Source: an uncultured Spirochaetia bacterium (lineage in GTDB: Bacteria > Desulfobacterota_D > UBA1144 > Nemesobacterales > CSP1-2). From it: a DNA stretch of 64,000 bases. Both the position numbers and the translations under genes were made by a program. Location: positions 22,050 to 86,049 of the forward strand of contig CAZWVA010000002.1 of assembly GCA_964636885.1 (NCBI GenBank), written 5' to 3'. Of the stretch, positions 1-17,780 are shown in pieces; within the stretch, counting starts at the first letter, position 1, and each line of letters begins with the position of its first letter. The notes below the pieces were generated by a model. It saw only the letters and a program-made list of their open reading frames with translations. It was not told the origin of the DNA and ran no database searches.

Positions 1-360
1 AAAGAGACTAAGAAACGACTTCGGCCAACGGAGATTTGCCCGGTTTGCAATTCTATTTCTGAAAAAACGGCCGTATGGATTGAGAATCTGCTCACGGATT
101 TAAAAGATGAAGAAATCAAAGGGCTCTACCTTAAGTCCTACGGACTATGTATGAATCACTTTAGCCAAGCCGTTGAATCCGCCTCCCCTGAGGTGGCGGA
201 AATACTGATTCAAAAGCAGGCCGAGGTGCTTAGAAAACTAAACAGCGACTTAGAGGAGTACTCTCGCAAGCTGGATTATCGCTATTCTCATGAACCAAAA
301 GGAGAAGAACAAACCGCCTGGATAAGGGCTATTAGGTTTTTTGCCGGTAAGAAACTATAG
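1..360 (+). CDS. Hypothetical protein, C-terminal part (the gene starts upstream of the window). It contains a CPVC...GLCxxH Cys/His motif and may be a zinc-binding accessory protein of the downstream phosphoesterase and dynamin unit.
   Basis: Frame 1 is open from base 1 through the stop at 358-360 (KETKKRLRPTEICPVCNSISEKTAVWIENLL...YGLCMNHF...). The Met at 151 is internal. A 40-nt gap separates it from the next gene on the same strand. Confidence 0.5.
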   Translation, partial: KETKKRLRPTEICPVCNSISEKTAVWIENLLTDLKDEEIKGLYLKSYGLCMNHFSQAVESASPEVAEILIQKQAEVLRKLNSDLEEYSRKLDYRYSHEPKGEEQTAWIRAIRFFAGKKL

Positions 361-399
361 GAGTTATAGAAATTTGTATTAGCACCAAGGGGTACCTCT

Positions 400-1107
400 A
401 TGAAGATTTTGATTCTTTCGGATATTCACGCAAATATTGAGGCACTGGAGGTTATAAAGGAAGGATATGATCATATTTTCTGTTTAGGGGATTTAGTTGA
501 TTATGGGCCGAATCCAAGAGAGTGCATAGATTTTATAAGGTGCAACGCTTATGCCGTTGTACGCGGAAATCACGATAACGCCGTAGCTTTCAAAGCGGAC
601 TGTAAATGCAGCGAAGCCTACAAACCGATGTCCGTAAAAACAAGAGAGCTTATGTGGAAGATTCTCGGAGAAGGAGAGATTACTTATTTAGGTTCCCTTC
701 CTCTAAATATGGCACTAGAACTCAGTGGAACAAAGTTTTTTCTTACACATGCAACACCAACCGATAACCTGTTTAAGTACCTACCGCCCGATTCACCCGA
801 TTACGTTTGGGAACGCGAGTTAGAAGGAGTGGATGCCGATTTTGTGCTCCTCGGTCATACCCATATCCCCATGATTAAGAGGATAGGGAAGACAACCGTT
901 ATCAATCCCGGTAGCGTCGGACAGTCAAAAGACATTCCGGCAGTGGCGTCTTATGCCGTATGGAATGATGGCGATGTAGAAATAAAGAGAGTCGCATACG
1001 ATATAAATAAGACGATAGAGAAGATCCTTTCAACTAAGCTTGATACTCGTATCAAAAGAGATTTAGTAACCGTTTTAGAATACGGGTATTTGAGAGATCC
1101 TTTATAG
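400..1107 (+). CDS. Metallophosphoesterase (calcineurin-like phosphoesterase, YfcE/MJ0936-type).
   Basis: N-terminal DIHAN motif, GDLVDYGP motif, GNHD motif and a late GHTH motif. Length 235 aa. Confidence 0.8.
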   Translation: MKILILSDIHANIEALEVIKEGYDHIFCLGDLVDYGPNPRECIDFIRCNAYAVVRGNHDNAVAFKADCKCSEAYKPMSVKTRELMWKILGEGEITYLGSLPLNMALELSGTKFFLTHATPTDNLFKYLPPDSPDYVWERELEGVDADFVLLGHTHIPMIKRIGKTTVINPGSVGQSKDIPAVASYAVWNDGDVEIKRVAYDINKTIEKILSTKLDTRIKRDLVTVLEYGYLRDPL

Positions 1108-1119
1108 GAGACGTGTTCC

Positions 1120-2883
1120 ATGTTGGAGTCCTACGTTAAAGCAAGAGACCATCTGTTAGAAAATCTGGATGATCTATATCGCCTGGCCTTTCATAGGAAG
1201 AAAGAAGGTGCTGGAAAAGCCATTCAAGAGCTAAAAGACAAGCTCTTGGAAGGACGTTTTAACCTGGCGGTTCTTGGACAGTTTAAGCGGGGGAAAACCA
1301 CGTTTATTAATGCCCTTCTAGGTAGCCAATTACTACCTACAGCGGTTGTTCCGCTTACCTCTATTATCACATTGATTAAGTATGGAAACAGCCTGCATAT
1401 AGAGGTTTTATTCAAAAACGGGGTTAGAAAAGAAATAACTATCGGGGAACTTCATGACTACGTGACCGAGAGAGGGAATCCAGAAAACCAAAAAGGGGTG
1501 CAGTACGTGGAAGTCCACTATGACTCTCCTTATTTAAGAGACGGGGTTCAGATTATAGACACTCCAGGAATAGGCTCCACTTACCAGCATAACACTGCCG
1601 TCACGTATAGTTATTTATCTAAAGTTGATGCCGCAGTGTTTTTGGTCGGTGTAGACCCGCCTATCAGCCAAGTCGAGTACGATTTCCTGAACGATATAAG
1701 GAAATACGTGGATAAAATCCTTTTCCTGCAGAACAAGATCGACCAGATGGATGAAAAAGATAGAGCTGAGTCACTGGAGTTTACAAAGCGAGTAATCGAA
1801 GAAAGGGTTGGCCTGAAGGACGTAAAAATCTTTCCACTATCGGCTAAGCAGGCTCTAGAAGGGAGATTAAATAACGATCGAGAAAAACTAGAGCGTAGTT
1901 TAATCGTGGATTTTGAAAGGGCTCTAAATGACTTTCTTATTAAGGAGAAAGGTAAAGCTCTCCTTAGTTCTGCGCTAAATAATACTCTTAAAATTCTCTC
2001 TGATGAGGTGATGTCTATAGAGCTTGAGATGAAGGGTATTTCTATGCCTTTAGAAGAGCTTAAAGAGAAGATAGATGAGTTCAATATTCAAAAAGAAAAA
2101 ATCCGTCAAGATAAGGAAGACTTCGACTATCTTCTAAAGGGGGAGAAGGAAAAACTCATCTCAGTCCTAGAGTCCGATTTAAAAGGTTTTGTAGAGGCAA
2201 AAGCTCCAGAGCTTATAAGAAAGATGGAAAAGCACTATAAAAAGCATGTGGATAAAGGTAAAATCGAACTTACAAAAGCAATAGACCAAGCGATGAGGCA
2301 AGAGGTTGAGAGTATTTTTAACGAGTGGCGTACCCTTGAGGAAGATAAATTAAGTCAGGGATTTGAAAATATATCAAGACGTTTTTCCTCTAAAGCCAAC
2401 GAGATAATAACCTATATTAAGAGACTCTCTTCGGATATCTTTGATATCGGAGTAGAAACCTTTAGCGGCGTAGAGACCCTTACCGGAGAGAGTTATTTTC
2501 ATTATAGGATAGAGTCCCTTTTCGACACTAATCTGGCTCTTGAGGTTCTGCCCTTTGCCCTTCCTGGGTTCTTGTTTCGAAGGATGGCCTTTGGCAGGAT
2601 GGTTGGGCAGTGTAGGGAAGAGCTAGACAGGAACGCTGGAAGGATTAGACACGATTTTGTGGAGCGAATAGAAAAAAGCATCGGAAGGTTTCGTGACGAG
2701 CTCTTTTCTAAGATCGATGCGACTCTATCTGGAATCGAATCCGCTCTTGAACGGGCTTTCTTAGAAAGCGAAGCCGGAGAAGAAAGGGTTATCCATGCAA
2801 AGAGAAATTTGGAAGAGCAGATCGGTGTGTTAAAACGAGTCAGAATGAATCTAATTAACATAGAGGAAAAGATTGTAAAGTAG
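1120..2883 (+). CDS. Bacterial dynamin-like GTPase (dynamin-family large GTPase).
   Basis: P-loop GQFKRGKTTFINALLG. DTPG switch motif. NKID G4-like motif (LQNKIDQ). A long alpha-helical, coiled-coil-rich C-terminal half. A 12-nt gap after the phosphoesterase gene. Confidence 0.75.
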   Translation: MLESYVKARDHLLENLDDLYRLAFHRKKEGAGKAIQELKDKLLEGRFNLAVLGQFKRGKTTFINALLGSQLLPTAVVPLTSIITLIKYGNSLHIEVLFKNGVRKEITIGELHDYVTERGNPENQKGVQYVEVHYDSPYLRDGVQIIDTPGIGSTYQHNTAVTYSYLSKVDAAVFLVGVDPPISQVEYDFLNDIRKYVDKILFLQNKIDQMDEKDRAESLEFTKRVIEERVGLKDVKIFPLSAKQALEGRLNNDREKLERSLIVDFERALNDFLIKEKGKALLSSALNNTLKILSDEVMSIELEMKGISMPLEELKEKIDEFNIQKEKIRQDKEDFDYLLKGEKEKLISVLESDLKGFVEAKAPELIRKMEKHYKKHVDKGKIELTKAIDQAMRQEVESIFNEWRTLEEDKLSQGFENISRRFSSKANEIITYIKRLSSDIFDIGVETFSGVETLTGESYFHYRIESLFDTNLALEVLPFALPGFLFRRMAFGRMVGQCREELDRNAGRIRHDFVERIEKSIGRFRDELFSKIDATLSGIESALERAFLESEAGEERVIHAKRNLEEQIGVLKRVRMNLINIEEKIVK

Positions 2884-3019
2884 ATCGATGGATTATGAAC
2901 CGAATCAACGCCAAGATAGAATATTCAATCGACATTTGTTTTCTCTAAATGAGGTGTTTTGGTAAAGAGCACACGGTTTAGCTTCGCTCCCTGTGACCGG
3001 TGATAAAAGGGGAATATCC

Positions 3020-4213
3020 ATGGGATATCGGCTAAAACCTCCGGAACAGAACGGTAGTGTTTTAAAAAGATCCGCTCTTAGATTCGTTATTTTACTGGGT
3101 GTGGTGAGCCTCCTTGCGGATATGACGTATGAAGGAGCCCGCAGTATTACCGGTCCGTTTCTCGCTGTACTCGGAGCGAGCGCGACGGTGGTAGGCATTG
3201 TATCTGGGTTTGGGGAGTTAATCGGTTACGGTCTTCGCCTTGTGTCGGGATACATTAGCGACCGAACCGGGAAATATTGGACTATAACGATCTTAGGGTA
3301 CGTCGTTAATATGCTGGCGGTCCCTCTATTGGCACTGGCGGGACGCTGGGAAGTCGCCGCTTTTCTCATGATTACGGAGCGCCTAGGAAAAGGGATTCGC
3401 ACTCCCGCCCGTGATGCGATGCTTTCACATGCCACTAAGGAGATCGGGCGAGGTTGGGGATTTGGTTTACATGAGGCTCTGGATCAAATAGGCGCGGTTA
3501 TCGGTCCTTTCATCGTTGCCATAGTTCTATACTTTAGGGAAGGCTATAAGATCGGCTTCGGTATTCTGGCTGTACCTGCCCTCTTGGCCTTAAGTGTCCT
3601 TTTGGCGGCACGACTCCTTTATCCGAGTCCTCGCGATCTGGAACCGGTCTCGGTCAAACTGGAAGGGAAAGGGTTTCCACGGGTATTCTGGCTCTATCTG
3701 GTTGCCGTTGCTTTGGTTGCGGCAGGCTATGCCGATTTTCCGCTTATCGCCTATCATTTCAAAAAGGTCTCAATTGCTTCTGATGGGTGGATTCCAATCT
3801 TTTATGCTGTTGCCATGGGAGTCGATGCCCTCTCAGCGCTTCTCTTTGGACGTCTCTTTGATCGAGTAGGTATTTCTATTCTGATCGTTGTCTCTCTTCT
3901 CTCATCGCTTTTTGCCCCTTTTGTATTTTTAGGGGGCTTTGGTTCTGCCCTCTTAGGAATGGCCCTTTGGGGTATAGGAATGGGGGCACAGGAGTCCATT
4001 ATGAGGGCGGCTGTGGCGGGTATGGTTCCTGCAAATAGGCGTGGCGCTGCATATGGGATTTTTAATACGGGCTATGGGGTGTTTTGGTTTCTGGGAAGTG
4101 CATTAATGGGCGTTCTCTATGATAAATCTATTCCCTCCCTAATTGCATTCTCGGTAGTGATGCAACTTGCCTCTGTCCCATTGCTTTTTGTGATCAGGAA
4201 AGGGCTTAAGTGA
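3020..4213 (+). CDS. MFS transporter.
   Basis: Twelve-helix hydrophobic profile with MFS-like loops (GRLxDRxG-like 'SGYISDRTGKY'). An RBS-like 'aaaagggg' lies 7 nt before the ATG at 3020. The ORF track opens at 2993. Confidence 0.75.
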   Translation: MGYRLKPPEQNGSVLKRSALRFVILLGVVSLLADMTYEGARSITGPFLAVLGASATVVGIVSGFGELIGYGLRLVSGYISDRTGKYWTITILGYVVNMLAVPLLALAGRWEVAAFLMITERLGKGIRTPARDAMLSHATKEIGRGWGFGLHEALDQIGAVIGPFIVAIVLYFREGYKIGFGILAVPALLALSVLLAARLLYPSPRDLEPVSVKLEGKGFPRVFWLYLVAVALVAAGYADFPLIAYHFKKVSIASDGWIPIFYAVAMGVDALSALLFGRLFDRVGISILIVVSLLSSLFAPFVFLGGFGSALLGMALWGIGMGAQESIMRAAVAGMVPANRRGAAYGIFNTGYGVFWFLGSALMGVLYDKSIPSLIAFSVVMQLASVPLLFVIRKGLK

Positions 4214-4369
4214 TTTCTTGCGGATGATACATGTACCTGTTTATTCAGCATGATAAACAATCACTAATCAGCTAGAATTGGTATAATATGTTATATGAAA
4301 CTGTACTACAAGTTTTTACTCAATCAACAACTTTTTATGTGTGAATTTGATGCTTTGTTGTGGTGAAAG

Positions 4370-5050
4370 ATGCGTATTTTAATCGTCGAAGATGAGAAGA
4401 AGACCGCCGCTTACCTCAAAAAGGGACTCTCGGAAAACGGCTTTATCGTGGACGTCACTGACCAGGGTGAAGATGGGCTTCGCTGTGCACTCAGGTTTGA
4501 TTATGACCTTATTATCCTCGATGTAATGCTCCCTAAACAGGATGGATGGTCGATTATTACCGAACTACGACGGAATGGCAAGCAAACCCCGGTTCTTTTT
4601 CTGACGGCTCGCGACTCGGTTCAGGATAGAGTCAAAGGATTGGAACTGGGTGCCGACGATTATCTGATGAAACCCTTTGCATTCTCAGAATTACTCGCTC
4701 GAGTGCGTTCCATTCTTCGACGTGGCCCAGCCCGGCAATCCGACATACTCCGCATCGCAGATCTAGAAATTGACTTTCTGCGACATAAGGTGATGCGAGG
4801 CGGAAATCGTATTGACCTGACACCAAAGGAGTTCGCTCTACTGTCCCTCCTAGCTCGACGAAGAGGCGAGATTTTGTCCCGGACTCTGATTGCGGAACAG
4901 GTCTGGGACATAAACTTCGACAGCGATACCAATGTAGTAGATGTAGCTGTTCGCCGACTTCGTAGAAAAGTAGACGATCCTTTCACAAGAAAGCTGATTC
5001 ATACGGTTCATGGGGTAGGGTATGTCCTCGAAGAGCGCGAAGATAGTTAA
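4370..5050 (+). CDS. cusR: Heavy-metal response regulator, OmpR family (CusR/CopR-like).
   Basis: Receiver domain (MRILIVEDE...[10 protein letters not shown]) plus winged-helix DNA-binding domain (GYVLEE...). Close similarity pattern to CusR/CopR. Overlaps the downstream kinase gene by 29 nt. Confidence 0.85.
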
Positions 5051-6491
5051 GAACACAAAAGATGCCGGTCGTGCATTGATCTTTCCTTGGTTCTGGTCAA
5101 TCACGGGAAGGTTAACTCTTTTATACACTTTATCGGCTTTCGGAGTGCTTGTTTTAGCCACTGTATTTTTATACTGGGTGCTTGTAAGCAATTTGGAAAG
5201 AGAAGACAATGAGTTCCTTGCTGACAAGATTCGTATTCTACGTGGTATTTTGCAGAAACACCCCGATAATATAGAAGCCTTAAAGGAGGAGGTAAAATGG
5301 GAAGGAGCCGCTCTCGAGCCTCCCGAATACTATATAAGGATTCTAGATGAAGAGGGGCGTACTTTGATGGAGACGCCTGGCATGAGTAGTATCATTACTG
5401 CTTCGTTGTTTCGGGCTACAATCAGTGCTGCGAAAGTACCAAAGAGAGGGATAAAATGGAAGTCGCATGATGGCAAGTTATATCTCTTGAAGGCAGCATG
5501 GGTAGAGTTTGATTCCTCTAGCAGGGATCGACAACAGCTTCAAGTAGCCCTGGACGTATCCGGCGACGAAGTTTTTATCGCGGACTATCGTCGAAAATTG
5601 TTGTTTGTGCTTATTTTGGGGATTTTATTCTCCACCGGAGCAGGCGTCGTCACCGCCCGTAAAGGGATGCACCCCTTAGAAGAGATAACAGAGGTTGCTC
5701 AACGGATTACGGCAACGAAGCTTCATGAACGAATTAATCCGGCAAAATGGCCAAACGAATTGACTGCACTTGCTACTGCCTTCGATGGGATGCTGAGCCG
5801 TCTTGAAGACTCTTTTACTCAACTGTCCCAATTTTCATCGGACTTGGCCCACGAATTGCGTACACCAATCAATAATCTCATAGGTGAAGCCGAGGTTGCT
5901 CTGTCCAGAGCCAGAACGCCAGAAGAGTACAGACAGGTTCTTGAATCAAGCCTTGAGGAGTATGGAAGATTGTCACGTATGATTGACAATTTGCTTTTTT
6001 TAGCTCGTGCTGAGAATCCAGAAACCGGGATAGAACGATCGCTGTTTGACGCCAGCAAAGAGATTGAAGCAGTTCGGGAATTTTATGATGCTATAGCTGA
6101 GGAGCAAGGAGTCAAGGTCATCTGCCAGGGAAATACGCTATTAAATGCAGACCCGATACTATTTCGGCGAGCGTTAAGCAACCTGCTTTCCAATGCTCTC
6201 CAGTATGCCCCACACGGTGGGAGGATCACCATCTCTGTCAAGCAGTTGGATGATCAATCCGTCGAAGTAAGCGTGAGTGACACTGGCTCTGGTATCGCTC
6301 CAGAAGACCTTCCTAGAGTTTTTAACCGATTCTACAGGGCTGACCGCGCCCGCTCCCAATACCCCCAGGGAACAGGTCTTGGACTTGCCATTGTCAAGTC
6401 CATTATGGACCTCCACGGCGGCACAGTCACGATCCAGAGTGAACTTGCGAAAGGAACTACAGTCATCCTAAGGTTTCCACCGCCAGCCTAA
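5022..6491 (+). CDS. cusS: Heavy-metal sensor histidine kinase (CusS/CopS-like).
   Basis: Two transmembrane segments, a HAMP region, an H-box '[16 protein letters not shown]', and N/G1/G2 boxes (DTGSGI...GLGLAIV). Confidence 0.85.
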
Positions 6492-6631
6492 GCCATAAGC
6501 ATTACAAAATTGTAATCTTTCTGTCATGTTCCTGTAAGCACCAGTTTAGTATAATTGCACTTTTAGATACTTGATAAAAGAGGATCCTACTAGGTTAACA
6601 CGAACGAAATGGATAGATAAGTGAGGGACAA

Positions 6632-7003
6632 ATGGTCAAGAAAAAGATATTAGAGAAAACCATCAAAGAAGCTTTTATTTTAGAGACAGAGAAGATAATA
6701 CACTTGTTAGCTCAAGAAATATCATTTGTTCTCAAATCTCTGAGATACAGGTTTGGGAAAGTGGCCACTCCTGGAATCAGAGAGTTTTCTAAAAAAGATG
6801 TGCTTATGGTTATTCTGGATGAATTGAAAGAAGTTAAGTGGGAACTCGAATCTGTTAAGAAACGTCTAAGAGGAATTGAGAAAACTTTAGAAGAAAGAAA
6901 AATTCAAGTAGCGGATACCGAACTTGGAGTAAAGCTTAAGCAATCTCTTTGGGGAGAAGATGAAGATAATGAAGATGGTCTATTCCTTTTTGGAGAAGGA
7001 TGA
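6632..7003 (+). CDS. Hypothetical small coiled-coil protein.
   Basis: A 123-aa ORF in the gap between cusS and the PAP2 gene. Lysine/glutamate-rich and helical. No recognisable family. Confidence 0.4.
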   Translation: MVKKKILEKTIKEAFILETEKIIHLLAQEISFVLKSLRYRFGKVATPGIREFSKKDVLMVILDELKEVKWELESVKKRLRGIEKTLEERKIQVADTELGVKLKQSLWGEDEDNEDGLFLFGEG

Positions 7004-7078
7004 ACGTCCTGATTAGAACGTAAACACGATGTTTGAGCCCTGAAAGATTAAGAATGGAATTGGATTAGGTATAAAAAC

Positions 7079-7882
7079 GTGGATAGAGCCTTAGAAGTAA
7101 ATAGAAAACCTTGCATAGCCTTTGTAATTATCATTTTTCTATTTTCTACATTACCTGCCCAAGCAGAAAAGGTTGAGACTAAAAAGACCGAAGAGGAAAG
7201 TTTTCCTGGGTACGTTTTTAAAACCCTTCCTAAGAACCTGTTGCTTGGAACTAAGGAAAGCCTCTGGGGATGGAATCTTGCCCTCCTTGGAGTAGGAGCC
7301 GGGACTGCAATAACTCTTTCTCAAACCGATGCCGACGATGATATACAAGACGATGTCAAAGGTTCGATAGGAGATTTTGCAGATATAGGAAACATATCAG
7401 GGAATGGGCTCACTGTAGCTGGAATAGCAATCTCGACGTATATATTAGGGAGAGTAATCAAGGATGAAAAAGTTATTGTAACAGGTAAAGCGCTTATTGA
7501 GGCGGAGATTATCACAGCGGTTATGACAAGCACAATAAAGATTTCTACCGGAAGAGAAAGGCCGGATGGAAGCGGTGACCGCCTTACTTCTTCTTTTCCA
7601 TCCGGGCATGCCTCAGGTACCTTTGCCCTGGCCTCTACTGTTGATGCCATGTATGGTCATAAAATAGGAATCCCACTTTACGCATTTGCTGGGTTTGTAG
7701 CATTCTCACGTCTCTCGGATAACAAGCATTTTTTGTCAGATGTATTAATCGGAGCAGCTATAGGAACAGCAGTTGGAAGAGGAGTGACAAGTATTCATAA
7801 GAAGAAAGACAATTCTAGGCTTTCTATTCTTCCTTATTCGGATGGAAATAGTGCAGGGTTGATGCTTACCCTATCGTGGTAA
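7079..7882 (+). CDS. PAP2-family phosphatase (phosphatidic acid phosphatase type 2), secreted or membrane-anchored.
   Basis: PAP2 motifs KxxxxxxRP ('KISTGRERPDG'), PSGH ('SFPSGHAS') and SRxxxxxHxxxD ('SRLSDNKHFLSDV'). N-terminal signal peptide. GTG start. Confidence 0.8.
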   Translation: MDRALEVNRKPCIAFVIIIFLFSTLPAQAEKVETKKTEEESFPGYVFKTLPKNLLLGTKESLWGWNLALLGVGAGTAITLSQTDADDDIQDDVKGSIGDFADIGNISGNGLTVAGIAISTYILGRVIKDEKVIVTGKALIEAEIITAVMTSTIKISTGRERPDGSGDRLTSSFPSGHASGTFALASTVDAMYGHKIGIPLYAFAGFVAFSRLSDNKHFLSDVLIGAAIGTAVGRGVTSIHKKKDNSRLSILPYSDGNSAGLMLTLSW

Positions 7883-7939
7883 AGAATGTTCAGGCACAGG
7901 ATATTAAAATGCATAATTAGAGGGAGGAAAAAGGCTTGC

Positions 7940-9259
7940 ATGAGGAAAACGCTATTTGCTGCATTCGTCATAGTCATTACAGGAGCTTCAACTGTTTTTT
8001 TTGCTTCTGTCTCAGATGCTGAAGAACCAATTCAAAGTTTAACAATTGATCAGGCAGTGGATATAGCACTTCGGGAGAATCGTGATCTCAGAGCAGCACG
8101 GATGCAGGTAGAAGAAGCCAGGGGGAGGTTGACGCAGGCTGGAATTTTCCCCAATCCATCTCTGGGATCTGACTTTAGCTTCGACTCTATTTTTGCCAAT
8201 GAAGGTGAGCGAAGTTTTTCTGCGGGTATTTCTCAACCGCTTCCTTTAAGCGGTCGAATAGGTGCTCAAAAAAGAGTAGCCCGTGTGGATATTAAAAGAA
8301 CGTTTGCCAACCTTGCTGATATGGAGCGTAGATTAATAAGGGATGTCCATCGTGCTTTTATCGAGCTTCTGGCAATTGATGAACAAATTAAATTGCAAGA
8401 CACTCTGATTAGCCTTAATAGTGAGCTAACTAAAGCAATCGAGGAGGGTATCAAAGAAGGGTTGGCTTCAGAAAAAGACCTTAACGCTGTAGCTATATCC
8501 CTTCAGCAAGCTAGACAGGAAAAAGAGGTTCTTATAGCCCAGAGAAAAAGTAAGATTCTTGAATTAAATAAGCTTTTGGGTAAGCCGCCAACCCTCTCCT
8601 TTTCGCCACAGGGAAAGCTTGAATACGAAGCCGCAAAGGATTTAACCCAGTATAATGTTGAAAAGGCATTTGCACAAAGACCGGATTTAAGGTCTGCGGA
8701 ACTTGATATCGAACTTGCAAAGACGAGCATGGATCTAGCAAAGGCTCAACGCTTTGAGGATATAACAGCAGGGATTTTTTACGAGCGTGATCGTACTATT
8801 CTCGATATCCCTGAAGGTAAAATTCCAGATACAGGTCAGCTTATTGGTTTTAAGCTGACTATTCCCCTGCCTCTCTTTGACCGTAAGCAAGGTCTTATTG
8901 CCGAGGCGCGTGCCCGTGAGAGAAGAGCGGAAGAGAGCGTCCAGGCTTTAAAGTTACAGATCAGTCAGGAGGTAACCGACGCTCTAAACCGGGTAACTAC
9001 ATTTTCGGCTCTCCTAGAAACTTATAGATCAGGAATTTTAAAGACAGCAGAGGACAATGTAAAGTTGGTTGAAAATAGCTTTAAACAAGGGCTTGTTGGT
9101 ATTGTTGATGTCATTCAGTCTCGTCAGCAGTTTACTACTCTGAAATCATCTTATATTAATACAGTTCGTGATTATCAACTTGCACTAAATGACCTTCAAA
9201 TAGCTGTGGGGACTTACCCAAATACGATTACTCTTGATAATGAGGGCGAAAACAAATGA
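7940..9259 (+). CDS. cusC: Outer-membrane efflux protein, TolC family (CusC/CzcC-like).
   Basis: Signal peptide MRKTLFAAFVIVITGAS, then TolC-like coiled-coil repeats. First gene of a C-B-A RND arrangement. The ORF track opens earlier at 7886. Confidence 0.8.
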   Translation: MRKTLFAAFVIVITGASTVFFASVSDAEEPIQSLTIDQAVDIALRENRDLRAARMQVEEARGRLTQAGIFPNPSLGSDFSFDSIFANEGERSFSAGISQPLPLSGRIGAQKRVARVDIKRTFANLADMERRLIRDVHRAFIELLAIDEQIKLQDTLISLNSELTKAIEEGIKEGLASEKDLNAVAISLQQARQEKEVLIAQRKSKILELNKLLGKPPTLSFSPQGKLEYEAAKDLTQYNVEKAFAQRPDLRSAELDIELAKTSMDLAKAQRFEDITAGIFYERDRTILDIPEGKIPDTGQLIGFKLTIPLPLFDRKQGLIAEARARERRAEESVQALKLQISQEVTDALNRVTTFSALLETYRSGILKTAEDNVKLVENSFKQGLVGIVDVIQSRQQFTTLKSSYINTVRDYQLALNDLQIAVGTYPNTITLDNEGENK

Positions 9260-10281
9260 GAACAGAAGAAAAGAAACTTTTTCACCCATTTTTAAGTATT
9301 ATTTTCATGTTTCTTCTCACCATAACGGTTTTACAATTCCTTTACGGCTGTGGTGAAGAACATGCGAATGAAAAAGATGAGGAAGGGAAAGCAACCTCCC
9401 CTCCTTCTATTAGCAATAATGTCGGCGTAGAACTTTCAGAGATTGCTCAAAAAAGCATAGGTCTTAAAGTAGCTGAAGCTGAAATAAGGCAAATCGAAGG
9501 CGTGCTCTTAGTTAACGGCGTGGTAAAGCCCGAACCTAATAGAGTTGCAGAGGTAAGCACAAGAGCTGAGGGTCGCATTCAGGAACTTTATGCGAACCTA
9601 GGGGACCGGGTTAAAAAAGGGCAAAAACTCGCTGCCATGCTACCACGTCAAATCGGCAATCCACCGCCTCTTGTATCAATTACAGCGCCACTCTCAGGAA
9701 TTCTTGTAGAAAGAAATGTCCTACTTGGCAGCACAGTAGTACCTAATACGATTCTTTTTCGGATTGCAGATTTATCGAAGGTAATTGTTGAGGGCGATGT
9801 ATTTGAAAGCGATGTTTCTAAAGTAAGACTGGGTCAGGATGCGCGTATAAGGCTGGATGCCTATCCCGATAGGGTGTTCAACGGCACAGTTAGCTTTGTT
9901 GCCAGTCAGCTTGACCCTCAGAAACGTACGCTACACCTCTGGGTTTCAGTAGATAACAAAGAAGGATTACTGAAGCCTGAGCTTTTTGCCAGGGTTGCTC
10001 TTGTAATTAAGCCCGGCAGGGAGGTTCTAGCTATCCCCTTAGAGGCAATTATTGACGATGGTGCAGAGAAATTCGTATTCGTAAAGAACGGAAACCAATT
10101 CATTCGCCAGGATGTTGCTACTGGGGCAAGTGACGACCGCTATGTTGAAATTACAGATGGTCTTTATCCAGGAGACCAGGTAGTCACGGATGGTAATCGG
10201 GAAATTTACACAAAGTGGTTGCTTGGTGGTGGTAATTTAAGGTTGGAAGAAGAAGGAGAAGAGAAGGAGGAGAAAGATTAA
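9256..10281 (+). CDS. cusB: RND efflux periplasmic adaptor (membrane fusion protein, CusB/CzcB-like).
   Basis: N-terminal transmembrane anchor. Biotinyl/lipoyl-like and beta-barrel MFP signatures (ATGASDDRYVEITDGL). A 4-nt overlap with the TolC gene. Confidence 0.8.
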   Translation: MRTEEKKLFHPFLSIIFMFLLTITVLQFLYGCGEEHANEKDEEGKATSPPSISNNVGVELSEIAQKSIGLKVAEAEIRQIEGVLLVNGVVKPEPNRVAEVSTRAEGRIQELYANLGDRVKKGQKLAAMLPRQIGNPPPLVSITAPLSGILVERNVLLGSTVVPNTILFRIADLSKVIVEGDVFESDVSKVRLGQDARIRLDAYPDRVFNGTVSFVASQLDPQKRTLHLWVSVDNKEGLLKPELFARVALVIKPGREVLAIPLEAIIDDGAEKFVFVKNGNQFIRQDVATGASDDRYVEITDGLYPGDQVVTDGNREIYTKWLLGGGNLRLEEEGEEKEEKD

Positions 10282-10311
10282 GTAATCAGCATTTACGTTA
10301 AAGTTCCTTAG

Positions 10312-13300
10312 GTGATAGGATATCAACCGATGTTTAATACAATAATCAGGTGGTCGCTAAATAACAAACTGTTACTCGTAGTGGCTACTGCTATCTTTCT
10401 TGGCTCTTCTATATATCTTGTCACACAAATGCCTGTGGATGTTTTTCCAGAATTTGCTCCACCTCAGGTTGTAATCCAGACTGAAGCGCCTGGACTCTCG
10501 TCTGAAGATATAGAGGCGCTAATCACCTTTCCAATCGAGAGCGCGGTAAACGGTACACCCGGTGTTGATATAGTTCGTTCATCATCTTCTGTAGGCCTTT
10601 CGACTATAACTGTTGTCTTTAAGTGGGGAACCAATATCTATACTGCTCGTCAGCTTGTAAATGAGCGTATCCAATCGGTGCAAAGACGATTTCCTCTAGG
10701 AACAAAACCTCCTTTAATGCTTCCCGTTACATCCGCTGTAGGCCGGATGATTGAATACAGCCTAACAAGTGATACACTCTCACCGATGGAACTCCGTACA
10801 ATCTCAGACTGGCAAATACGTCCAAGGATACTTGCAATTGGGGGTGTGGCTTCTGTTGTTTCAATGGGAGGTGAAGTCAAGCAGTATCAAGTTCTCATTG
10901 ATCCGCTGAAGTTACGCTCCTACGACGTGACTCTAGCTCAGGTAAAAGAGGCGGTAGAGAAATCAAACGTAAATGTTCCGGGTGGATTTCTATATAGAGG
11001 GGGTGAAGAGTTTGTTGTCACAGGAGTTGGACGAATTACTACTCTCGATGATTTAAAGGAGACTGTAGTGGCTGTTCGTGACGGAATCCCTATTACCTTA
11101 AGCCAGTTGGCTGAAGTTAGGATAGGTCCTGAGATAAAACGTGGAGACGGTGCCTTTATGAATAAACCCGCTGTTATTGGTACGATTTCAAAAGCTTATG
11201 GTGCCGATACGTTGACTACAACATACAAGGTTGAAAAGACCCTTGAAGAGATTAAAGCAAGTCTCCCTAAAGGGGTTGATATGAATTATCATGTCTTCAG
11301 GCAAGCGGATTTCATCGAATCCGCCATCAAAAATTTGAAGAATACCCTCTGGCAGGGTGGAATCATAGTAACGGTGATTCTCTTTTTATTCCTTTATAAT
11401 TTTCGTGCCTCTTTTATAAGCCTGCTTGCTATGCCACTATCGCTTCTTGCAGGGTTAATGGTTTTAAAAGCCTTTGGTATCGGGATTAATGCAATGACGC
11501 TGGGAGGACTTGCCATTGCCATAGGTATTGTGGTTGATGATGCAATCATAGACGTGGAAAACGTCTTTAGAAGACTGCGCCTTAACCGTGCCTTACCCCA
11601 TCCCGAACCTGTGCTTAGCGTCGTCTTTAAAGGTTCAACTGAGATCCGAAACCCTATAGTCTACGCCACATTCATTATCATAATTGCCTTTTTCCCTGTG
11701 TTTTTACTCTCCGGTACTGAAGGAAGAATTCTTACCCCGCTTGGGATCGCATTCATAGCGAGTGTCCTTTGCTCATTGCTTGTAGCTGTAACAACGACAC
11801 CTGTGCTTTGTTATTTACTTCTTACCCGTAAACATGAGAGAGAACATGACAGAGGATTAGCTCAAGCAGGGGTACCATTACTGCGGCCGGAAGCCGCTTT
11901 CAGTAATCCGGGAAACCCCTCGGATACGCCGGGTAGTTCTAGTGGCGAAGGCTCTAGTTACAAGATGGAAAAAGAAGCTACTCTTGTACGCCTTCTTAAG
12001 AAAGTTTACGAACGCATTCTGAACCGCTCGCTAAAGCATTTTTACCTGATAATCGGTATTTCAGTCATTCTGCTCATCGGCGCTCTCGTAATGACTCCCT
12101 TTTTCGGACGCTCATTTCTGCCCGAGTTCCGTGAAGGTAACTTCATCATACGCATAACAATGCTGCCAGGTACCTCACTCGAGGAATCTATGCGACTCGG
12201 TTCATTGATTCAAAAGAATCTAACCGACAAATCAAAATATCCGGAGATTATTTCAGTTGCACAGCGTGCAGGACGTGCAGAACTCGATGAGGATGCGTTG
12301 CCACCTAATATCAGTGAGTTTGATCTCGCAATCAAGTATGGAAAGAGATCAGCCGATGATTTAATTAATGCAATCCGATCTGACCTAAAAGAAATTCCTG
12401 GGGTTGCAGTAGAAGTCAACCAATTTATCTCCGAGCGAATGAATGAAGTGCTTTCAGGTATCCGTGCAGATGTGGCTATTAAGATCTTTGGTCCTGATCT
12501 TATAAAATTAAGAATTATTGGTGAACAGGCAAGAGACATTGTAGAAACTGTAAAAGGGGTTAAGGACTTACAACTAGAACAGCAGATTAATGTTCCTCAG
12601 GTCGTAGTTAAATACGACCGTGAGAAAGCTGCAAGGTACGGACTTAATGTTGGGGATTTAGCAGGGATCACAGAAACCTCCTTAAACGGCACTGCGGTCT
12701 CACAAGTGCTGGAAGATCAGAAGACTTTTGACCTCTTTATTCGGCTTAATGAAGAATCGAGAAGTAACATTGAGGCTACCAAGAACATCCTCATTGATAC
12801 CCTAACAGGGGCAAAGATTCCTCTTCGTGAGGTCGCCGATATACATCTTGAAAATCGCCCATACACGATAAATCGTGAACAGGTTCAACGCCGTATAGTG
12901 GTTCAATTTAACGTTGCCGGTCGTGACCTAAATAGTGTGATTACTGAGGCTAAACAGAAGATTGAATCCCAAGTGAAATTGCCTTCTTCAGACTACTTTA
13001 TTGAATACGGCGGCCAGTTTGAAAGCCAGCAAAGGGCGTCAAAGATTCTTACAATCTTCGGTATTGTGGCAATACTCGGAATTTTTATGATGCTCTTTCA
13101 TGCTTTTGGAAACGCACGCGAATCAATAATGGTAATGGTTAACCTTCCTCTTGCCCTTATTGGTGGTGTATATGCTGTGTTTCTTACGGGAGGCGAACTA
13201 AGTGTGCCTTCACTAATCGGTTTTATAACCCTATTTGGAATTGCTACTAGAAATGGGATTATTCTTATAAGCCATTATAAGCAATTAAGAAAAGATGGAT

Positions 13301-13548
13301 TCTCTATTCGTGATACAGTTGTTCAGGGCTCACTTGACCGGCTAAATCCTATTTTAATAACGGCCTCTGTCGCCGCGCTTGGTCTTATTCCGCTTCTGCT
13401 TGGCGAGCCGACTGGTAAAGAAATTGAGAGACCACTAGCAGTTGTGCTTCTGGGAGGTCTCTTTACCTCAACTTTTTTGAATCTCGTTGTTATTCCAACT
13501 TTATATAACAAGATTGAAGCTTGGCAGGAGAATAAAAAAACAAATTAA
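10312..13548 (+). CDS. cusA: Heavy-metal efflux RND transporter, CusA/CzcA family.
   Basis: 1078 aa. Characteristic CusA N-terminus (IIRWSLNNKLLLV). Twelve transmembrane segments and two large periplasmic loops. A Met-rich stretch (AFMNKP...). The true start may be the internal Met at 10330. Confidence 0.9.
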   Translation: MIGYQPMFNTIIRWSLNNKLLLVVATAIFLGSSIYLVTQMPVDVFPEFAPPQVVIQTEAPGLSSEDIEALITFPIESAVNGTPGVDIVRSSSSVGLSTITVVFKWGTNIYTARQLVNERIQSVQRRFPLGTKPPLMLPVTSAVGRMIEYSLTSDTLSPMELRTISDWQIRPRILAIGGVASVVSMGGEVKQYQVLIDPLKLRSYDVTLAQVKEAVEKSNVNVPGGFLYRGGEEFVVTGVGRITTLDDLKETVVAVRDGIPITLSQLAEVRIGPEIKRGDGAFMNKPAVIGTISKAYGADTLTTTYKVEKTLEEIKASLPKGVDMNYHVFRQADFIESAIKNLKNTLWQGGIIVTVILFLFLYNFRASFISLLAMPLSLLAGLMVLKAFGIGINAMTLGGLAIAIGIVVDDAIIDVENVFRRLRLNRALPHPEPVLSVVFKGSTEIRNPIVYATFIIIIAFFPVFLLSGTEGRILTPLGIAFIASVLCSLLVAVTTTPVLCYLLLTRKHEREHDRGLAQAGVPLLRPEAAFSNPGNPSDTPGSSSGEGSSYKMEKEATLVRLLKKVYERILNRSLKHFYLIIGISVILLIGALVMTPFFGRSFLPEFREGNFIIRITMLPGTSLEESMRLGSLIQKNLTDKSKYPEIISVAQRAGRAELDEDALPPNISEFDLAIKYGKRSADDLINAIRSDLKEIPGVAVEVNQFISERMNEVLSGIRADVAIKIFGPDLIKLRIIGEQARDIVETVKGVKDLQLEQQINVPQVVVKYDREKAARYGLNVGDLAGITETSLNGTAVSQVLEDQKTFDLFIRLNEESRSNIEATKNILIDTLTGAKIPLREVADIHLENRPYTINREQVQRRIVVQFNVAGRDLNSVITEAKQKIESQVKLPSSDYFIEYGGQFESQQRASKILTIFGIVAILGIFMMLFHAFGNARESIMVMVNLPLALIGGVYAVFLTGGELSVPSLIGFITLFGIATRNGIILISHYKQLRKDGFSIRDTVVQGSLDRLNPILITASVAALGLIPLLLGEPTGKEIERPLAVVLLGGLFTSTFLNLVVIPTLYNKIEAWQENKKTN

Positions 13549-13609
13549 AGAAGGTTGAAGGGAAAATAATTAGTTTTAACCCTCCGATCCATATATGTAA
13601 CGCTCTTTC

Positions 13610-14536: not shown

Positions 14537-14541
14537 AGCAT

Positions 14542-14853: not shown

Positions 14854-15036
14854 GAATAACCTCTTTTATGTGTAGGAGTTATTGTATAAATATATAACTA
14901 TATAATTATATTTTAGGATCTTTTTTATAACTTGTCAAATAACAACAGGCGAAAACCGTCGGCTTACAAAACGGTCCAAAAATTAAAAATTCTTTGGAGA
15001 GTGCATAATGCTATAAGCATTAGCATTTTAGTTTCA

Positions 15037-15486
15037 TCACTTAACCACCATAACCGTACATGGGGCAAGGCGGGTGAGGGTTTGTGAAGTGCTTCCCCAG
15101 ATTCTTCCAAACACCTTCGAATGTCCCATAAAACCTATCACAAGAAGATCAAACTTTCCTTCGTTAACGTAACTGACGATTTTCTCTACCTCGTGTCCTG
15201 CAACGACCTTCGTGTGTAGTGTAACGCCTTCTTTTGAAGCAAACTCTATGGCCTCTTGGTTTACTTTATCAAAGTAAGCGTTTCTTTCATGCTTAGCCTC
15301 AACGACTTCTCCTACCGTGGCCGCATAATGAGGCAGATCCTCTTCTACGGATATTGAATGAATCTCAGCATCAAAGCGTTTGGCAAGTTCAACCGCTACC
15401 CGCAGGGCTTTTTTCGCCCCTTCCGAGCCGTCATTTGCAACAAGGATTTTATTAAATCTAAACATTTTTACCCTCCCCTTGGTCAA
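15037..15486 (-). CDS. Universal stress protein (UspA family).
   Basis: UspA fold signatures (ILVANDGSEGAKKAL...LLVIGFMGHSKVFGRIWGSTSQ). Overlaps the upstream antiporter gene by 29 nt and is likely co-transcribed with it under the fluoride riboswitch. Confidence 0.8.
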   Translation of the reverse strand: MTKGRVKMFRFNKILVANDGSEGAKKALRVAVELAKRFDAEIHSISVEEDLPHYAATVGEVVEAKHERNAYFDKVNQEAIEFASKEGVTLHTKVVAGHEVEKIVSYVNEGKFDLLVIGFMGHSKVFGRIWGSTSQTLTRLAPCTVMVVK

Positions 15487-16648
15487 TCACACTAAGTACT
15501 GGAATTTCTTTGACAGCTTTGCCACTTACCTCGATCTCCTCACTCAAATTCGGCTGGAACCAACGCTGAGCGATAAGTGTAGGCACTATAGCCGTGAGAA
15601 TTACTACAGTAACAAGCACAGAAAACTGGCCGATGTTAATAAACCCCGCTGAGAGTCCGTACATCGAAGATATCGTTCCAAAAGTGAGTCCGGTACTCAT
15701 AAGTAGTGTGGTATAAGTAGCGTTCTTTGGAATGTACTTCTTTGCAAGTGGATATACTCCTATTACCTTTGCTCCTATTTTCACTCCGAATAATACCAGA
15801 AGGAGTCCAAAATTAGCATAGATCTCCTTGAGAGAAACGTTCATGCCGCCTTTTATGAAGAAAAAAGGCGTTATCATGGCAAAGGCGATTATTCTCAACT
15901 TTCTTTGAAGCTCTCTATTCGAGCGGAGCGTATTTGAAAGCACAAGTCCAAGAATAAACACCGGAAGCACAGCATGGCTTGCACCGAGTTTGGCAAGGTA
16001 CATGAACAGAAAAAGAAGAAAGAACAAGAACTTAATCTCAGGCTCAATCACTCTATTCCCATACCTCTTGAGAATCGGAGACATAACCTTTGGGGAGAGG
16101 AAAATTATCACAGCGGAGCCGAAAACAAAAACCAGAGTAAACCAGTTTCCCTCAGCAAAGAGCAGGCTAAGTGCCAATGCAGTGCTAAAGTCCGTAACGA
16201 AACAGGATGCCATGATCGTTTTTCCGATCTTTGTCTCGGTAAGTCCTGTTTCTACTAGGACAGCGTAAACCACAGCTAAAGACGTAGTAGAAAGAGCGGT
16301 TCCCGCGATCTGAGAGGCTTTAAAACCCCATCCTGCTATTCCGTAGCAGTAGGCAAAAGTCAAAAGAAACGGTGCAAGAAATGAAATCCCACCGATGAGA
16401 AGGCTCTCTTTAAACTTCTCTTTCATGAGCTCGGGATCCGTTTCCGCTCCCGCCAGGAATGTAAGCAGAATTCCTCCAAAACCAGCAAGGAAGTCAATCC
16501 AGGGTGTAGAGTGAAGACCGAGAAAGTTTCCACCTATAACACCCATGGCGATTTCAATAATAGATACAGATATTGCGGCTTCGACCGAGATAAGGCTTGC
16601 GAGAAAAATTAGAAGTCCCATGATTAAGGTGACGTATGTGTTATCCAT
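15458..16648 (-). CDS. Cation:proton antiporter (CPA1/CPA2 Na+/H+ exchanger family), fluoride-regulated.
   Basis: A 396-aa polytopic protein with Na+/H+ exchanger family motifs. A strong SD 'GGAGGAG' lies just upstream. A fluoride riboswitch sits in its 5' leader. CPA antiporters are known members of the fluoride regulon. Confidence 0.8.
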   Translation of the reverse strand: MDNTYVTLIMGLLIFLASLISVEAAISVSIIEIAMGVIGGNFLGLHSTPWIDFLAGFGGILLTFLAGAETDPELMKEKFKESLLIGGISFLAPFLLTFAYCYGIAGWGFKASQIAGTALSTTSLAVVYAVLVETGLTETKIGKTIMASCFVTDFSTALALSLLFAEGNWFTLVFVFGSAVIIFLSPKVMSPILKRYGNRVIEPEIKFLFFLLFLFMYLAKLGASHAVLPVFILGLVLSNTLRSNRELQRKLRIIAFAMITPFFFIKGGMNVSLKEIYANFGLLLVLFGVKIGAKVIGVYPLAKKYIPKNATYTTLLMSTGLTFGTISSMYGLSAGFINIGQFSVLVTVVILTAIVPTLIAQRWFQPNLSEEIEVSGKAVKEIPVLSVIDQGEGKNV

Positions 16649-16662
16649 CGATTCTCCTCCGC

Positions 16663-16716: not shown

Positions 16717-16773
16717 TGATCTTTAGGTAGGAGTCATCAGCTATCTCGGTCGAGATAGCAGTTAAAGGCAGAA
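16717..16773 (-). ncRNA. Fluoride riboswitch (crcB RNA motif) aptamer in the 5' leader of the antiporter-usp operon.
   Basis: The minus strand reads GGCAAUGGAGUUCUGCC-UUUAA-CUGCUAUCUCGACCGAGAUAGCUG-AUGACUCCUAC. It matches the consensus GGCGAUGGAGUUCGCC...stem-loop...CUAAUGACUCCUAC. P1 is GGCA/UGCC. The pseudoknot is GGAGU/ACUCC. There is a perfect P3 hairpin. Confidence 0.85.
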
Positions 16774-16906
16774 CTCCATTGCCTTTACTAAGAGGGCATT
16801 ACACATAAATATAAAACGAGCCGAAATATTGTCAACCGGTTCCCCTTTTGGAAGCGTCGTGATTGACAATGCTCGATTTCACTATAGAGTTATGTGTGAT
16901 ATTTTT

Positions 16907-17002
16907 GCAATGAAGGTAAATGGTTCTGCCTACATACACTGTTCCAACCGGAACGGTTAACGACTCCTACTTAATACGAAATTTCACGGTAGTGGTGTTT
17001 TT
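16907..17002 (+). ncRNA. Second, divergent fluoride-riboswitch-like element plus terminator in the crcB leader.
   Basis: GCAAUGAAGGUAAAUGGUUCUGCC...CUGUUCCAACCGGAACGG-UUAACGACUCCUAC. The 3' half matches the consensus (P3 hairpin plus UAAYGACUCCUAC). The 5' half is degenerate: GG-UU where the reference has GGAGU. Downstream, GUAGUGGUG-UUUUU can pair with ACUCCUAC as a terminator. Confidence 0.45.
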
Positions 17003-17037
17003 CGATTCCGGAGATGAAATGAAATCGGGGGAAACGA

Positions 17038-17424
17038 ATGATAAAGGTACTCTTGGTTGCGCTCGGCGGAGCTATGGGAGCCCTACTCAGATATGCGATG
17101 TCAGGCTTTACATCCAGGTACCTGGATGGAGTCTTTCCATGCGGGACATTGATGGTGAACCTTGTGGGCTGCTTCGTAATAGGTTTTCTGTGGCAACTAT
17201 TCGAGATGGTAGTTGTTTCACCAAATGTAAGGACTTTTATCCTTATAGGTATTCTAGGTGCCTTTACGACCTTTTCCACTTATGGGCTGGAGAGTTTCAA
17301 CCTTATTCGGGAGGGTGAGTTCGGGTTTGCCGTATTAAACGTTTTAATGAGTAACGTTGTGGGGATAATGCTGGTTTTTTGTGGTTTCGTCGTTTCAAGG
17401 TATTTTATCGGTATTTTCAGATAG
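17038..17424 (+). CDS. crcB: Fluoride ion channel CrcB/Fluc.
   Basis: 128 aa and four transmembrane segments. Conserved motifs GAMGALLRY and GxxxxFTTFSTY (GILGAFTTFSTYGLE). Confidence 0.9.
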   Translation: MIKVLLVALGGAMGALLRYAMSGFTSRYLDGVFPCGTLMVNLVGCFVIGFLWQLFEMVVVSPNVRTFILIGILGAFTTFSTYGLESFNLIREGEFGFAVLNVLMSNVVGIMLVFCGFVVSRYFIGIFR

Positions 17425-17435: not shown

Positions 17436-17780
17436 ATGACTTTACCCGGAGAAGGACTACTACTTAGGATATTCATAGGGGAAACCGACAGTTATAAAGG
17501 AAAGGCGCTTTATGAACAGATCGTCCTTAAGGCAAGGGAGCTAAACCTCGCCGGGGCGACGGTTATTCGTGGGATAATGGGCTTTGGCGCCGATAGTCGT
17601 ATACATACGGCTAAACTCCTTCGACTCTCTGAGGACTTACCCGTCGTTATAGAGCTGGTGGATACGGAGGAAAACCTGAACAAGATACTTCCCTTTCTAG
17701 ATGAGACGGTAAAAGAGGGACTTGTCACGATGGAAAAGGTGAGAATCATTAAATACGGATACGCCAGTAAAAATAAATAA
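17436..17780 (+). CDS. DUF190-domain protein (commonly co-encoded with crcB).
   Basis: A 114-aa protein with a nitrogen-regulatory-PII-like fold signature (LLRIFIGETD...GATVIRGIMGFG). An 11-nt gap after crcB. Confidence 0.75.
   Translation: MTLPGEGLLLRIFIGETDSYKGKALYEQIVLKARELNLAGATVIRGIMGFGADSRIHTAKLLRLSEDLPVVIELVDTEENLNKILPFLDETVKEGLVTMEKVRIIKYGYASKNK

Follow-up and report, generated by a model that had tools for sequence, protein, structure and literature searches.

A dynamin-like protein, a metallophosphoesterase and a DUF6062 protein as likely distal members of an operon led by a fluoride riboswitch

Units in which a fluoride riboswitch governs crcB or eriC-F were reportedly described by Baker et al. 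in 2012. Such crcB/eriC-F units are also covered in PMC7266159, and a longer operon, ppaC-uspA-eno-gpmA-crcB-orf5249, is known from Enterobacter cloacae FRM, where experiments on enolase, pyrophosphatase and phosphoglycerate mutase bear out the logic of supplying extra copies (PMC5533749). Explanations of the fluoride regulon have so far invoked exporters and spare copies of enzymes that fluoride inhibits. What bacterial dynamins do in the living cell is largely unclear, and the signals that induce them are poorly defined. Here we analyze a stretch of 64,000 nucleotides (henceforth the window) from an uncultured Spirochaetia bacterium placed by GTDB in Desulfobacterota_D (contig CAZWVA010000002.1, positions 22,050 to 86,049), which opens with genes for a DUF6062 protein, a metallophosphoesterase (MPE) and a dynamin-like protein (DLP). 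We find it likely that these three are the distal genes of a fluoride-inducible operon and hence members of the fluoride regulon.

All three genes lie on the + strand where the original prediction, made from the letters of the window alone, had placed them. The window edge cuts the DUF6062 gene (Pfam PF19538) and leaves its 3' half at 1..360 (119 codons and the stop, in an open reading frame (ORF) open at the edge). It is followed by the MPE gene at 400..1107 (235 aa, Pfam Metallophos_2, YfcE-like) and the DLP gene at 1120..2883 (587 aa, with a Dynamin_N GTPase domain in Pfam and a fold-search assignment to the BDLP/IniA structural class). The measured gaps of 39 nt (DUF6062-MPE) and 12 nt (MPE-DLP) agree with the co-oriented, tightly spaced trio that had been proposed. 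An MFS transporter gene at 2993..4213 on the same strand (Pfam MFS_1, 88.5 bits; start at GTG 2993 or at ATG 3311, the latter being the call on a JGI contig) is probably the last gene of this run, and orthologous MFS genes stand 3' of the DLP gene in the related loci L009, L010 and L090-L092.

The beginning of the operon had been expected outside the window, and there it was found. An exact-protein look-up led to a 35.8-kb JGI metagenome contig, L001, whose positions 8882-21764 are identical to window positions 1-12883 (0 mismatches over 12,883 nt; window position = L001 position - 8881) and which holds the full DUF6062 gene and the genes upstream of it; the window has a 100% protein match in at least three independent assemblies. 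On the + strand of L001, a sigma-70-like promoter (4788-4817, an 11/12 match) ends 11 nt 5' of a fluoride riboswitch aptamer (4828-4896; Rfam RF01734, 57.2 bits against a gathering score of 34). Directly 3' of the riboswitch lies a small leader ORF (4958-5248), and then, all on the + strand, come the genes for u136, a 136-aa protein without a Pfam family (5268-5678), a zinc-ribbon and HEAT_2 protein (5675-6172) and a HEAT_2 protein of 320 aa (6172-7134). These are followed by a decayed enolase on the same strand, a non-coding stretch of about 560 nt (7135-7693, with recognizable pieces at 7168-7678, which is window ~ -1713 to -1203), by the + strand genes of the small coiled-coil proteins cc126 (126 aa; 7694-8074) and cc145 (145 aa; 8071-8508), and by the complete DUF6062 gene (8528-9241, +; 237 aa, Pfam, 86.6 bits). 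This places the riboswitch 3.6 kb 5' of where DUF6062 starts and some 4 kb ahead of the window. Between the aptamer and the DLP, all genes share the + strand and either overlap or are separated by short gaps, with the 560-nt enolase remnant as the sole exception. The presumed three-gene operon turns out to be the 3' portion of a longer run, with about ten genes behind a fluoride riboswitch.

The enolase remnant matches residues 3-98, 232-260 and 372-423 of a 427-aa enolase and carries a frameshift and two internal deletions. The pyrophosphatase present in the operons of relatives (L090-L092) is missing from L001. The ORFs of cc126 and cc145 (L001 7694-8508, window ~ -1187 to -373) overlap by 4 nt; their N-termini resemble a ribbon-helix-helix (a beta strand and two helices), a resemblance that no Pfam match backs.

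The link between the DLP and fluoride riboswitches extends well beyond this lineage. A pattern scan with one genome per species returned 580 confirmed relatives, the best 80 of which were analyzed together with four others; these 84 loci comprise 1.13 Mb of searched DNA from several bacterial phyla, at 38-100% DLP identity. For the aptamers we built our own covariance model, R1, from seven Rfam-confirmed examples, and calibrated it by re-scanning 18 loci with Rfam: all matches of at least 24.8 bits passed the gathering score, and the three weakest (17-23 bits) failed it. A validated same-strand fluoride riboswitch lies 5' of the DLP gene at 77 of the 84 loci, either no more than 400 nt from the estimated DLP start (66 loci, median 75 nt) or farther 5' at the head of a multi-gene run that includes the DLP (11 loci). 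Three more loci have sub-threshold matches only, at the same position, and the R1 search found no aptamer in the other four, one of which has no upstream DNA as its contig begins at the DLP. The DLP is the first ORF 3' of the aptamer in 68 loci. In the alignment of 123 hits, covariation is seen in both helices: 94% of the cells are paired, and double-sided changes number 120, compared with 29 in shuffles.

Judged by record titles, the loci belong to Desulfobacterota, Nitrospirota, Acidobacteriota, Firmicutes and further groups, along with two archaeal-binned contigs. Orthologues at 43-47% identity occur in Thermincola potens, Desulfoferrobacter suflitae and one Terriglobales genome, next to CrcB, DUF190, enolase, Na+/H+ exchanger, universal stress protein (Usp) and MFS genes, which is the classic gene set of fluoride riboswitches. 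Rfam scans place RF01734 at 6854-6924 in the T. potens locus (L004) and at 6796-6862 in that of D. suflitae (L006), with the DLP starting at 7001 in both. In the Terriglobales locus (L008), RF01734 is followed by genes for a Na+/H+ exchanger, DUF6062, Usp, a 156-aa protein, the DLP and an AAA_16 protein. The two archaeal-binned contigs, L049 (a Woesearchaeota metagenome-assembled genome) and L058 (a Methanosarcinales one), carry the same DLP with an Rfam-confirmed riboswitch directly 5' of it; either a binning error or horizontal transfer could account for them.

The expression platforms come in two kinds. In the predicted ligand-free fold of the L001 leader (-49.2 kcal/mol, z -3.0), CUCCUACC, which forms the 3' strand of the aptamer, is paired with GGUAGGAG, where the leader ORF that starts at L001 4958 has its ribosome-binding site. 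As modeled, this is the layout expected of a translational ON switch—without fluoride the pairing would mask the ribosome-binding site of the leader ORF, and with fluoride bound the aptamer 3' strand would be locked in the pseudoknot and the site freed. Elsewhere a T-tract stands 3' of 53 of the 66 DLP-proximal aptamers. Where individual examples were read, the hairpin preceding the T-tract is built with the aptamer's own 3' strand, so that terminator and aptamer overlap. Judged by sequence, most other lineages, with the DLP gene directly 3' of the aptamer, have the standard transcriptional ON design. The leader ORF itself has counterparts, likewise directly 3' of the riboswitch, in L010 (284-550), L009 (301-552), L091 (1076-1309) and L092 (2383-2655). 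All of these ORFs, that of L001 included, are small and basic (77-96 aa) and weakly conserved (24-40% identity), with the shared motifs M.HP.N.L and LELRKNHS; the leader ORF may be a real protein or just a regulatory leader.

The adjacency of the three genes, which had been thought open to refutation by related genomes, is not incidental: the order DUF6062-MPE-DLP recurs in five close relatives (L010, L090-L092, and L089, whose contig ends after the MPE). These closest relatives, with 75-81% DLP identity, retain the long operon, usually in a more complete state than L001. Its order there is riboswitch, small ORF, family I pyrophosphatase, u136, two HEAT proteins, a u136 paralogue or a PhoU_div protein, intact enolase, cc126, cc145, one or two DUF6062 genes, MPE, DLP, in some a hemerythrin, and MFS. 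The pyrophosphatase is present in L090-L092 (Pfam-confirmed for L091), and the enolase is intact in L010 and L089-L091 and shortened in L092. In L010 and L090-L092 the operon is uninterrupted, with mostly short gaps or overlaps between genes. A further relative, L009, is without DUF6062 and has a split MPE.

The proposal that the phosphoesterase is a dedicated partner of the DLP stood for a subset of lineages and failed as a general rule. Among the 137 same-strand neighbors of the 84 DLP genes, only four ORFs belong to Metallophos_2, and they come from three loci only (L001, L009 and L010), so the MPE is not a general DLP partner. MPE homologues at 53-55% identity are clustered with DLPs in three of three cases, and in two also with DUF6062. 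The first, L102, has a riboswitch followed by DUF6062, Usp and MPE, and then a second riboswitch followed by a DLP. The second, L103, has a riboswitch and a DLP, and then a second riboswitch followed by MFS, MPE, AAA_16 and a second DLP. The third is a JGI contig, considered by its gene order only: DLP, HEAT, enolase, MFS, DUF6062, an unknown protein, MPE, AAA_16, another unknown protein and a second DLP. The MPE homologues of at least 53% identity that stand behind a riboswitch are those of L102 and L103; those at or below 51% lie in unrelated contexts, where no fluoride riboswitch was found.

For DUF6062, a metagenome scan based on a six-sequence alignment returned only 11 loci, and the statistics are thin for that reason. 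Six of the 11 have a clear same-strand aptamer (L090-L092, L096, L097 and L099), and L102 adds one; L093 has a weak match, one locus is cut at its 5' end, and no aptamer was found in L094, L095 and the short L098. Three DUF6062 genes and then a DLP follow the aptamer in L096. MFS genes, too, are preceded by a fluoride riboswitch of their own in L008 and L103, and an MFS gene is third in a riboswitch-led run in L099. The DLP, the MPE sub-clade and DUF6062 occur at these loci in varied arrangements, which ties each of the trio genes independently to fluoride riboswitches.

Across the 137 same-strand DLP neighbors, MFS_1 is the commonest family (9), followed by Na_H_Exchanger (7), HEAT_2 (7), Usp (5), a prenyltransferase-like toroid (5), enolase (4), DUF6062 (4) and Metallophos_2 (4); other neighbors from the classic fluoride regulon are CrcB, DUF190, HAD and His_Phos_1 proteins. 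Large ORFs 3' of the DLP in ten loci proved to be unrelated housekeeping genes.

Several smaller families recur beside the DLP. Zinc-ribbon and HEAT_2 proteins of 126-167 aa lie directly 3' of it in L028, L042, L046, L054 and L055 and are recurrent neighbors both in Nitrospirota and in the window's lineage (L001 5675-6172); a HAD-like protein (about 156 aa) comes next in some of the loci. A protein of about 260 aa with an alpha-alpha toroid like that of prenyltransferases and squalene-hopene cyclases is directly 3' of the DLP in L013, L020, L079, L082 and L084. An AAA_16/nSTAND6-like NTPase of 221-268 aa (L008 8791-9540, L011 9744-10493, L054 2826-3632, L103 10720-11394) is found either directly 3' of the DLP, overlapping its stop in L008, or between the MPE and a second DLP. 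Such a second, longer DLP paralogue lies 3' in some related fluoride loci (L011, L103 and JGI 3300075153). Proteins of 136-156 aa without a Pfam family also stand beside DLPs (L001 5268-5678, L008 6526-6996, L012 6295-6765), and they have the motif LRGYGEVP in common with the N-terminal extension of the second paralogue (619 aa; L011 5450-7309). The 136-aa protein matches the N-terminus of that paralogue over a single stretch of 17 residues (E 0.001); as a lead only, this hint of domain fusion would suggest that the 136-156-aa proteins may be DLP partners.

The DLP of the window scores 97.1 bits against Pfam Dynamin_N (PF00350; cutoff 27), and its G1 GQFKRGKT (53-60), switch-I T80, G3 DTPG (147-150) and G4 NKID (205-208) are invariant in 16 orthologues. 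In its AlphaFold2 model (pLDDT 79.7), a helical neck and trunk are folded back on the GTPase domain. The best Foldseek matches are the Nostoc BDLP structures 2j69 and 2j68 (E 2e-23, TM 0.74-0.76), and IniA 6j72 (TM 0.63-0.66), Campylobacter DLP1/2, SynDLP and mitofusins come next. Residues 447-481, between the helices 381-441 and 483-552, form a loop with pLDDT below 50. The most hydrophobic segment outside the GTPase domain is LALEVLPFALPGFLF (residues 472-486), in which an LP motif is conserved; together with the low-confidence loop, it sits at the trunk tip, the position of the BDLP paddle.

The MPE matches Metallophos_2 with 85.8 bits (cutoff 27) and carries the motifs D8xH10, G30D31 and G56NHD59. 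The YfcE-type label that it had been given is borne out at the level of this family but falls marginally short in NCBIfam, where it scores 55.7 bits against the cutoff of 56.25 for YfcE (TIGR00040). The nearest solved structures, 3rqz (E 3.3e-20), 2gju and 3qfm, are uncharacterized MPEs and SapH. The window fragment of the DUF6062 protein matches profile positions 123-239 of 243 in PF19538 (E 1.5e-13, 51.2 bits against 27) and contains CPVC (residues 13-16) and GLCMNH; the full 237-aa protein reaches 86.6 bits against the same cutoff of 27 and has two CPxC...G[FL]CxxH half-motifs. The residues C23, C26, C61, H64, C131, C134, C168 and H171 are invariant in the alignment, and these Cys/His half-motifs suggest that the protein binds zinc. 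A DUF6062 profile search of the PDB sequences gave nothing below E 0.3.

Putting these observations together, we infer that transcription from the riboswitch-led start runs across the enolase remnant and that the operon would be expressed when cytoplasmic fluoride rises. The DLP, as a BDLP/IniA-like GTPase that would bind membranes, might then remodel or reseal the cytoplasmic membrane, acting beside the co-regulated CrcB, Na+/H+ exchanger, MFS and Usp proteins, with the transporters keeping fluoride and protons out. We advance this membrane-repair role as a tentative suggestion. The MPE could be an induced extra copy of an enzyme class inhibited by fluoride, like the enolase and pyrophosphatase of the sister operons, and the DUF6062 protein a zinc-binding accessory protein. 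That the DLP clade, which is widespread (it is present in no fewer than 580 species-level genomes, among which are Desulfobacterota, Nitrospirota, Acidobacteriota, Firmicutes and Dadabacteria-like lineages), acts as a dedicated fluoride-stress effector is a possible but doubtful generalization.

Several points weigh against this proposal. The 560-nt non-coding enolase remnant lies between the first genes behind the riboswitch and the final five, and the trio could be uncoupled from fluoride by Rho-dependent polarity or by an internal promoter. The riboswitch itself is outside the window and is known from a metagenome contig, identical over 12.9 kb. The paddle region of the DLP is modeled poorly (pLDDT ~33), and both membrane binding by the DLP and membrane damage by fluoride enter the argument as suppositions. 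The structure prediction of the DUF6062 protein, which the original prediction had called for, came out unusable (pLDDT 50.6, from six sequences). As to priority, a full-text literature search over about 8 million papers returned no paper joining a fluoride riboswitch with a dynamin, with the limit that such a pair may be listed in the supplement of Baker et al. 2012.

A different account of the DLP keeps the fluoride regulation and dispenses with membrane repair: fluoride poisons GTPases, and the DLP would be induced to replace or out-titrate an inhibited one, or would itself be a fluoride-responsive effector. It is established biochemistry that metal-fluoride complexes such as GDP-AlFx or GDP-MgF3 trap GTPases, and the G domains of dynamins dimerize on analogues of this kind. 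The presence of the classic fluoride targets pyrophosphatase and enolase in the sister operons and of HAD-like and His_Phos_1 phosphatases among the DLP neighbors is in line with this idea, as is the fluoride operon of E. cloacae, which has been explained by the logic of inhibited enzymes (PMC5533749). However, riboswitch control at 77 of 84 loci makes the clade resemble a dedicated fluoride-response gene and not a second housekeeping copy, and we regard the poisoned-GTPase account as rather unlikely. It is also conceivable that in this genome the trio has left fluoride control because the decay of the enolase broke the operon, with cc126, cc145, DUF6062, MPE and DLP now under a promoter of their own or on their way to being lost. 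The 560-nt remnant with its frameshifts and internal deletions, and the missing pyrophosphatase, speak for such a break and for an operon that is eroding. Yet all five ORFs downstream of the remnant are intact, at 60-81% identity to the copies in relatives, a scan of the remnant predicted neither a convincing terminator nor a strong + strand promoter, and a 100% protein match of the window recurs in at least three independent assemblies; we consider a severed operon improbable.

The original prediction had also raised the prospect of a stress or defense module. Its stress half survives in spirit; the defense half does not, being backed only by generic DLP similarity to PADLOC models. Some bacterial DLPs do protect against phage, and an anti-phage dynamin system akin to Eleos/LeoABC, with the MPE as effector, would be signaled by the matches of the DLP to the PADLOC LeoA (E 3.7e-23) and LeoBC (E 3.3e-16) models. 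These are, however, generic DLP homology, and the PADLOC matches of the other two proteins are weak and at chance level (LmuB E 0.0016, PDC-S10 E 0.0009), on which grounds the defense candidate was rejected. Window positions 1-6000 and L001 hold a single Dynamin_N gene instead of a LeoA and LeoBC set, no defense genes are adjacent, the neighbors being ion transporters and fluoride-target enzymes, and the DLP family stands directly behind fluoride riboswitches in several bacterial phyla. An anti-phage role is accordingly very unlikely, and membership in a fluoride-inducible operon is the reading that we carry forward.

Elsewhere in the window, a second fluoride riboswitch aptamer at 16721..16792 on the - strand (Rfam RF01734, 57.2 bits against 34; R1 68.9 bits) is followed on that strand by a Na+/H+ exchanger gene as the first gene (15458..16648; Pfam Na_H_Exchanger, E 5.4e-37) and a Usp gene as the second (15037..15486; Pfam Usp, E 1.1e-26). 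Divergent from it, on the + strand, are crcB, encoding a Fluc-type fluoride channel (17038..17424; Pfam CRCB, E 4.1e-28), and a gene for DUF190, a common CrcB partner (17436..17780; Pfam DUF190, E 1.9e-40). Before crcB lies a weak, possibly degenerate riboswitch-like element (16906..16976, +; R1 25.1 bits, E 3e-5), which is a candidate only because it is not reported at the Rfam gathering score. The riboswitch of the trio operon, the second riboswitch with its exchanger and Usp genes, crcB and DUF190 mark the region as a fluoride-resistance island that packs as many as three riboswitch-led units into about 22 kb. The stretch 3' of the MFS gene (4370-13548) codes for an OmpR-type response regulator, a HAMP/HisKA kinase, a PAP2 phosphatase and an efflux system of the OEP/MFP/RND type, and genes for an ArsP-type permease (13610-14536) and ArsR (14542-14853) follow on the - strand. 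With the efflux genes and ArsR/ArsP, the region resembles a general resistance island for ions and metals.

The fluoride riboswitch and the diversity of its regulon are already known, and it is the DLP clade, more than the three-gene arrangement, that makes the locus of interest. The full-text search returned no paper that mentions DUF6062. The original paper on the motif, Weinberg 2010, does not use the word "dynamin", nor does the word occur in the first 200 of the 438 files in its supplement; one later review contains neither "dynamin" nor "GTPase", and the fluoride-riboswitch passages of another list no regulated genes. The DLP, DUF6062 and the MPE sub-clade enlarge the fluoride regulon by three protein families or more, with the HEAT/zinc-ribbon, u136/u156 and AAA_16 proteins as further candidates, and DUF6062, a family of unknown function, acquires a first functional context. 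A riboswitch-wired DLP clade also offers NaF as a clean trigger for studying a bacterial dynamin in vivo, and its cultured carriers include Thermincola potens JR, Desulfoferrobacter suflitae, Desulfacinum hydrothermale and Desulfallas sp. Bu1-1. If the clade is indeed a dedicated fluoride-stress effector, there would be a bacterial dynamin whose physiological trigger is defined and open to control in the laboratory; fluoride toxicity would have a membrane component met by GTP-driven remodeling, or metal-fluoride complexes would modulate the DLP; and DUF6062, the MPE sub-clade, the HEAT/zinc-ribbon proteins and the AAA_16 NTPase would be accessory factors of the DLP. There is practical relevance too, since fluoride tolerance limits the microbial defluorination of organofluorines, to which fluoride toxicity is a barrier (PMC11777429).

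Set beside known proteins, the MPE of the window has the Metallophos_2 fold and metal-binding motifs of the YfcE/SapH-type enzymes (3rqz, 3qfm), but it differs from YfcE in scoring just under the NCBIfam cutoff and in belonging to a sub-clade linked to fluoride riboswitches and DLPs. The DLP shares a Dynamin_N GTPase domain with a helical stalk with LeoA/LeoBC (Eleos), Campylobacter DLP1/DLP2 and Bacillus subtilis DynA. Some related fluoride loci (L011, L103 and JGI 3300075153) have a second DLP, as in the paired systems, whereas the window has one; the structural match to LeoA is remote (rank 33, TM 0.33). Closer in build are BDLP of Nostoc punctiforme (2j68/2j69) and IniA of Mycobacterium smegmatis (6j72/6j73), with the same N-terminal GTPase domain, helical neck and trunk, and hydrophobic tip. 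IniA is a stress-induced, drug-responsive membrane DLP. The window DLP has just 17-18% identity to these two, is shorter (587 aa against about 690 for BDLP), and is set apart by its fluoride-riboswitch control, which is described for neither.

As a genetic unit, the locus is most like the E. cloacae and crcB-type operons, in that an RF01734 aptamer heads a multi-gene unit. The sister operons of L001 share with the E. cloacae operon a pyrophosphatase, an enolase, Usp and transporters, and, as in known fluoride units, crcB and a Na+/H+ exchanger-Usp pair lie near the trio behind aptamers of their own, that of crcB being the weak candidate. Unlike the E. cloacae operon, L001 has a decayed enolase and lacks the pyrophosphatase; and unlike the fluoride operons described in those parts of the sources that cover them, it carries a DLP, DUF6062, an MPE, HEAT/zinc-ribbon proteins and two coiled-coil proteins.

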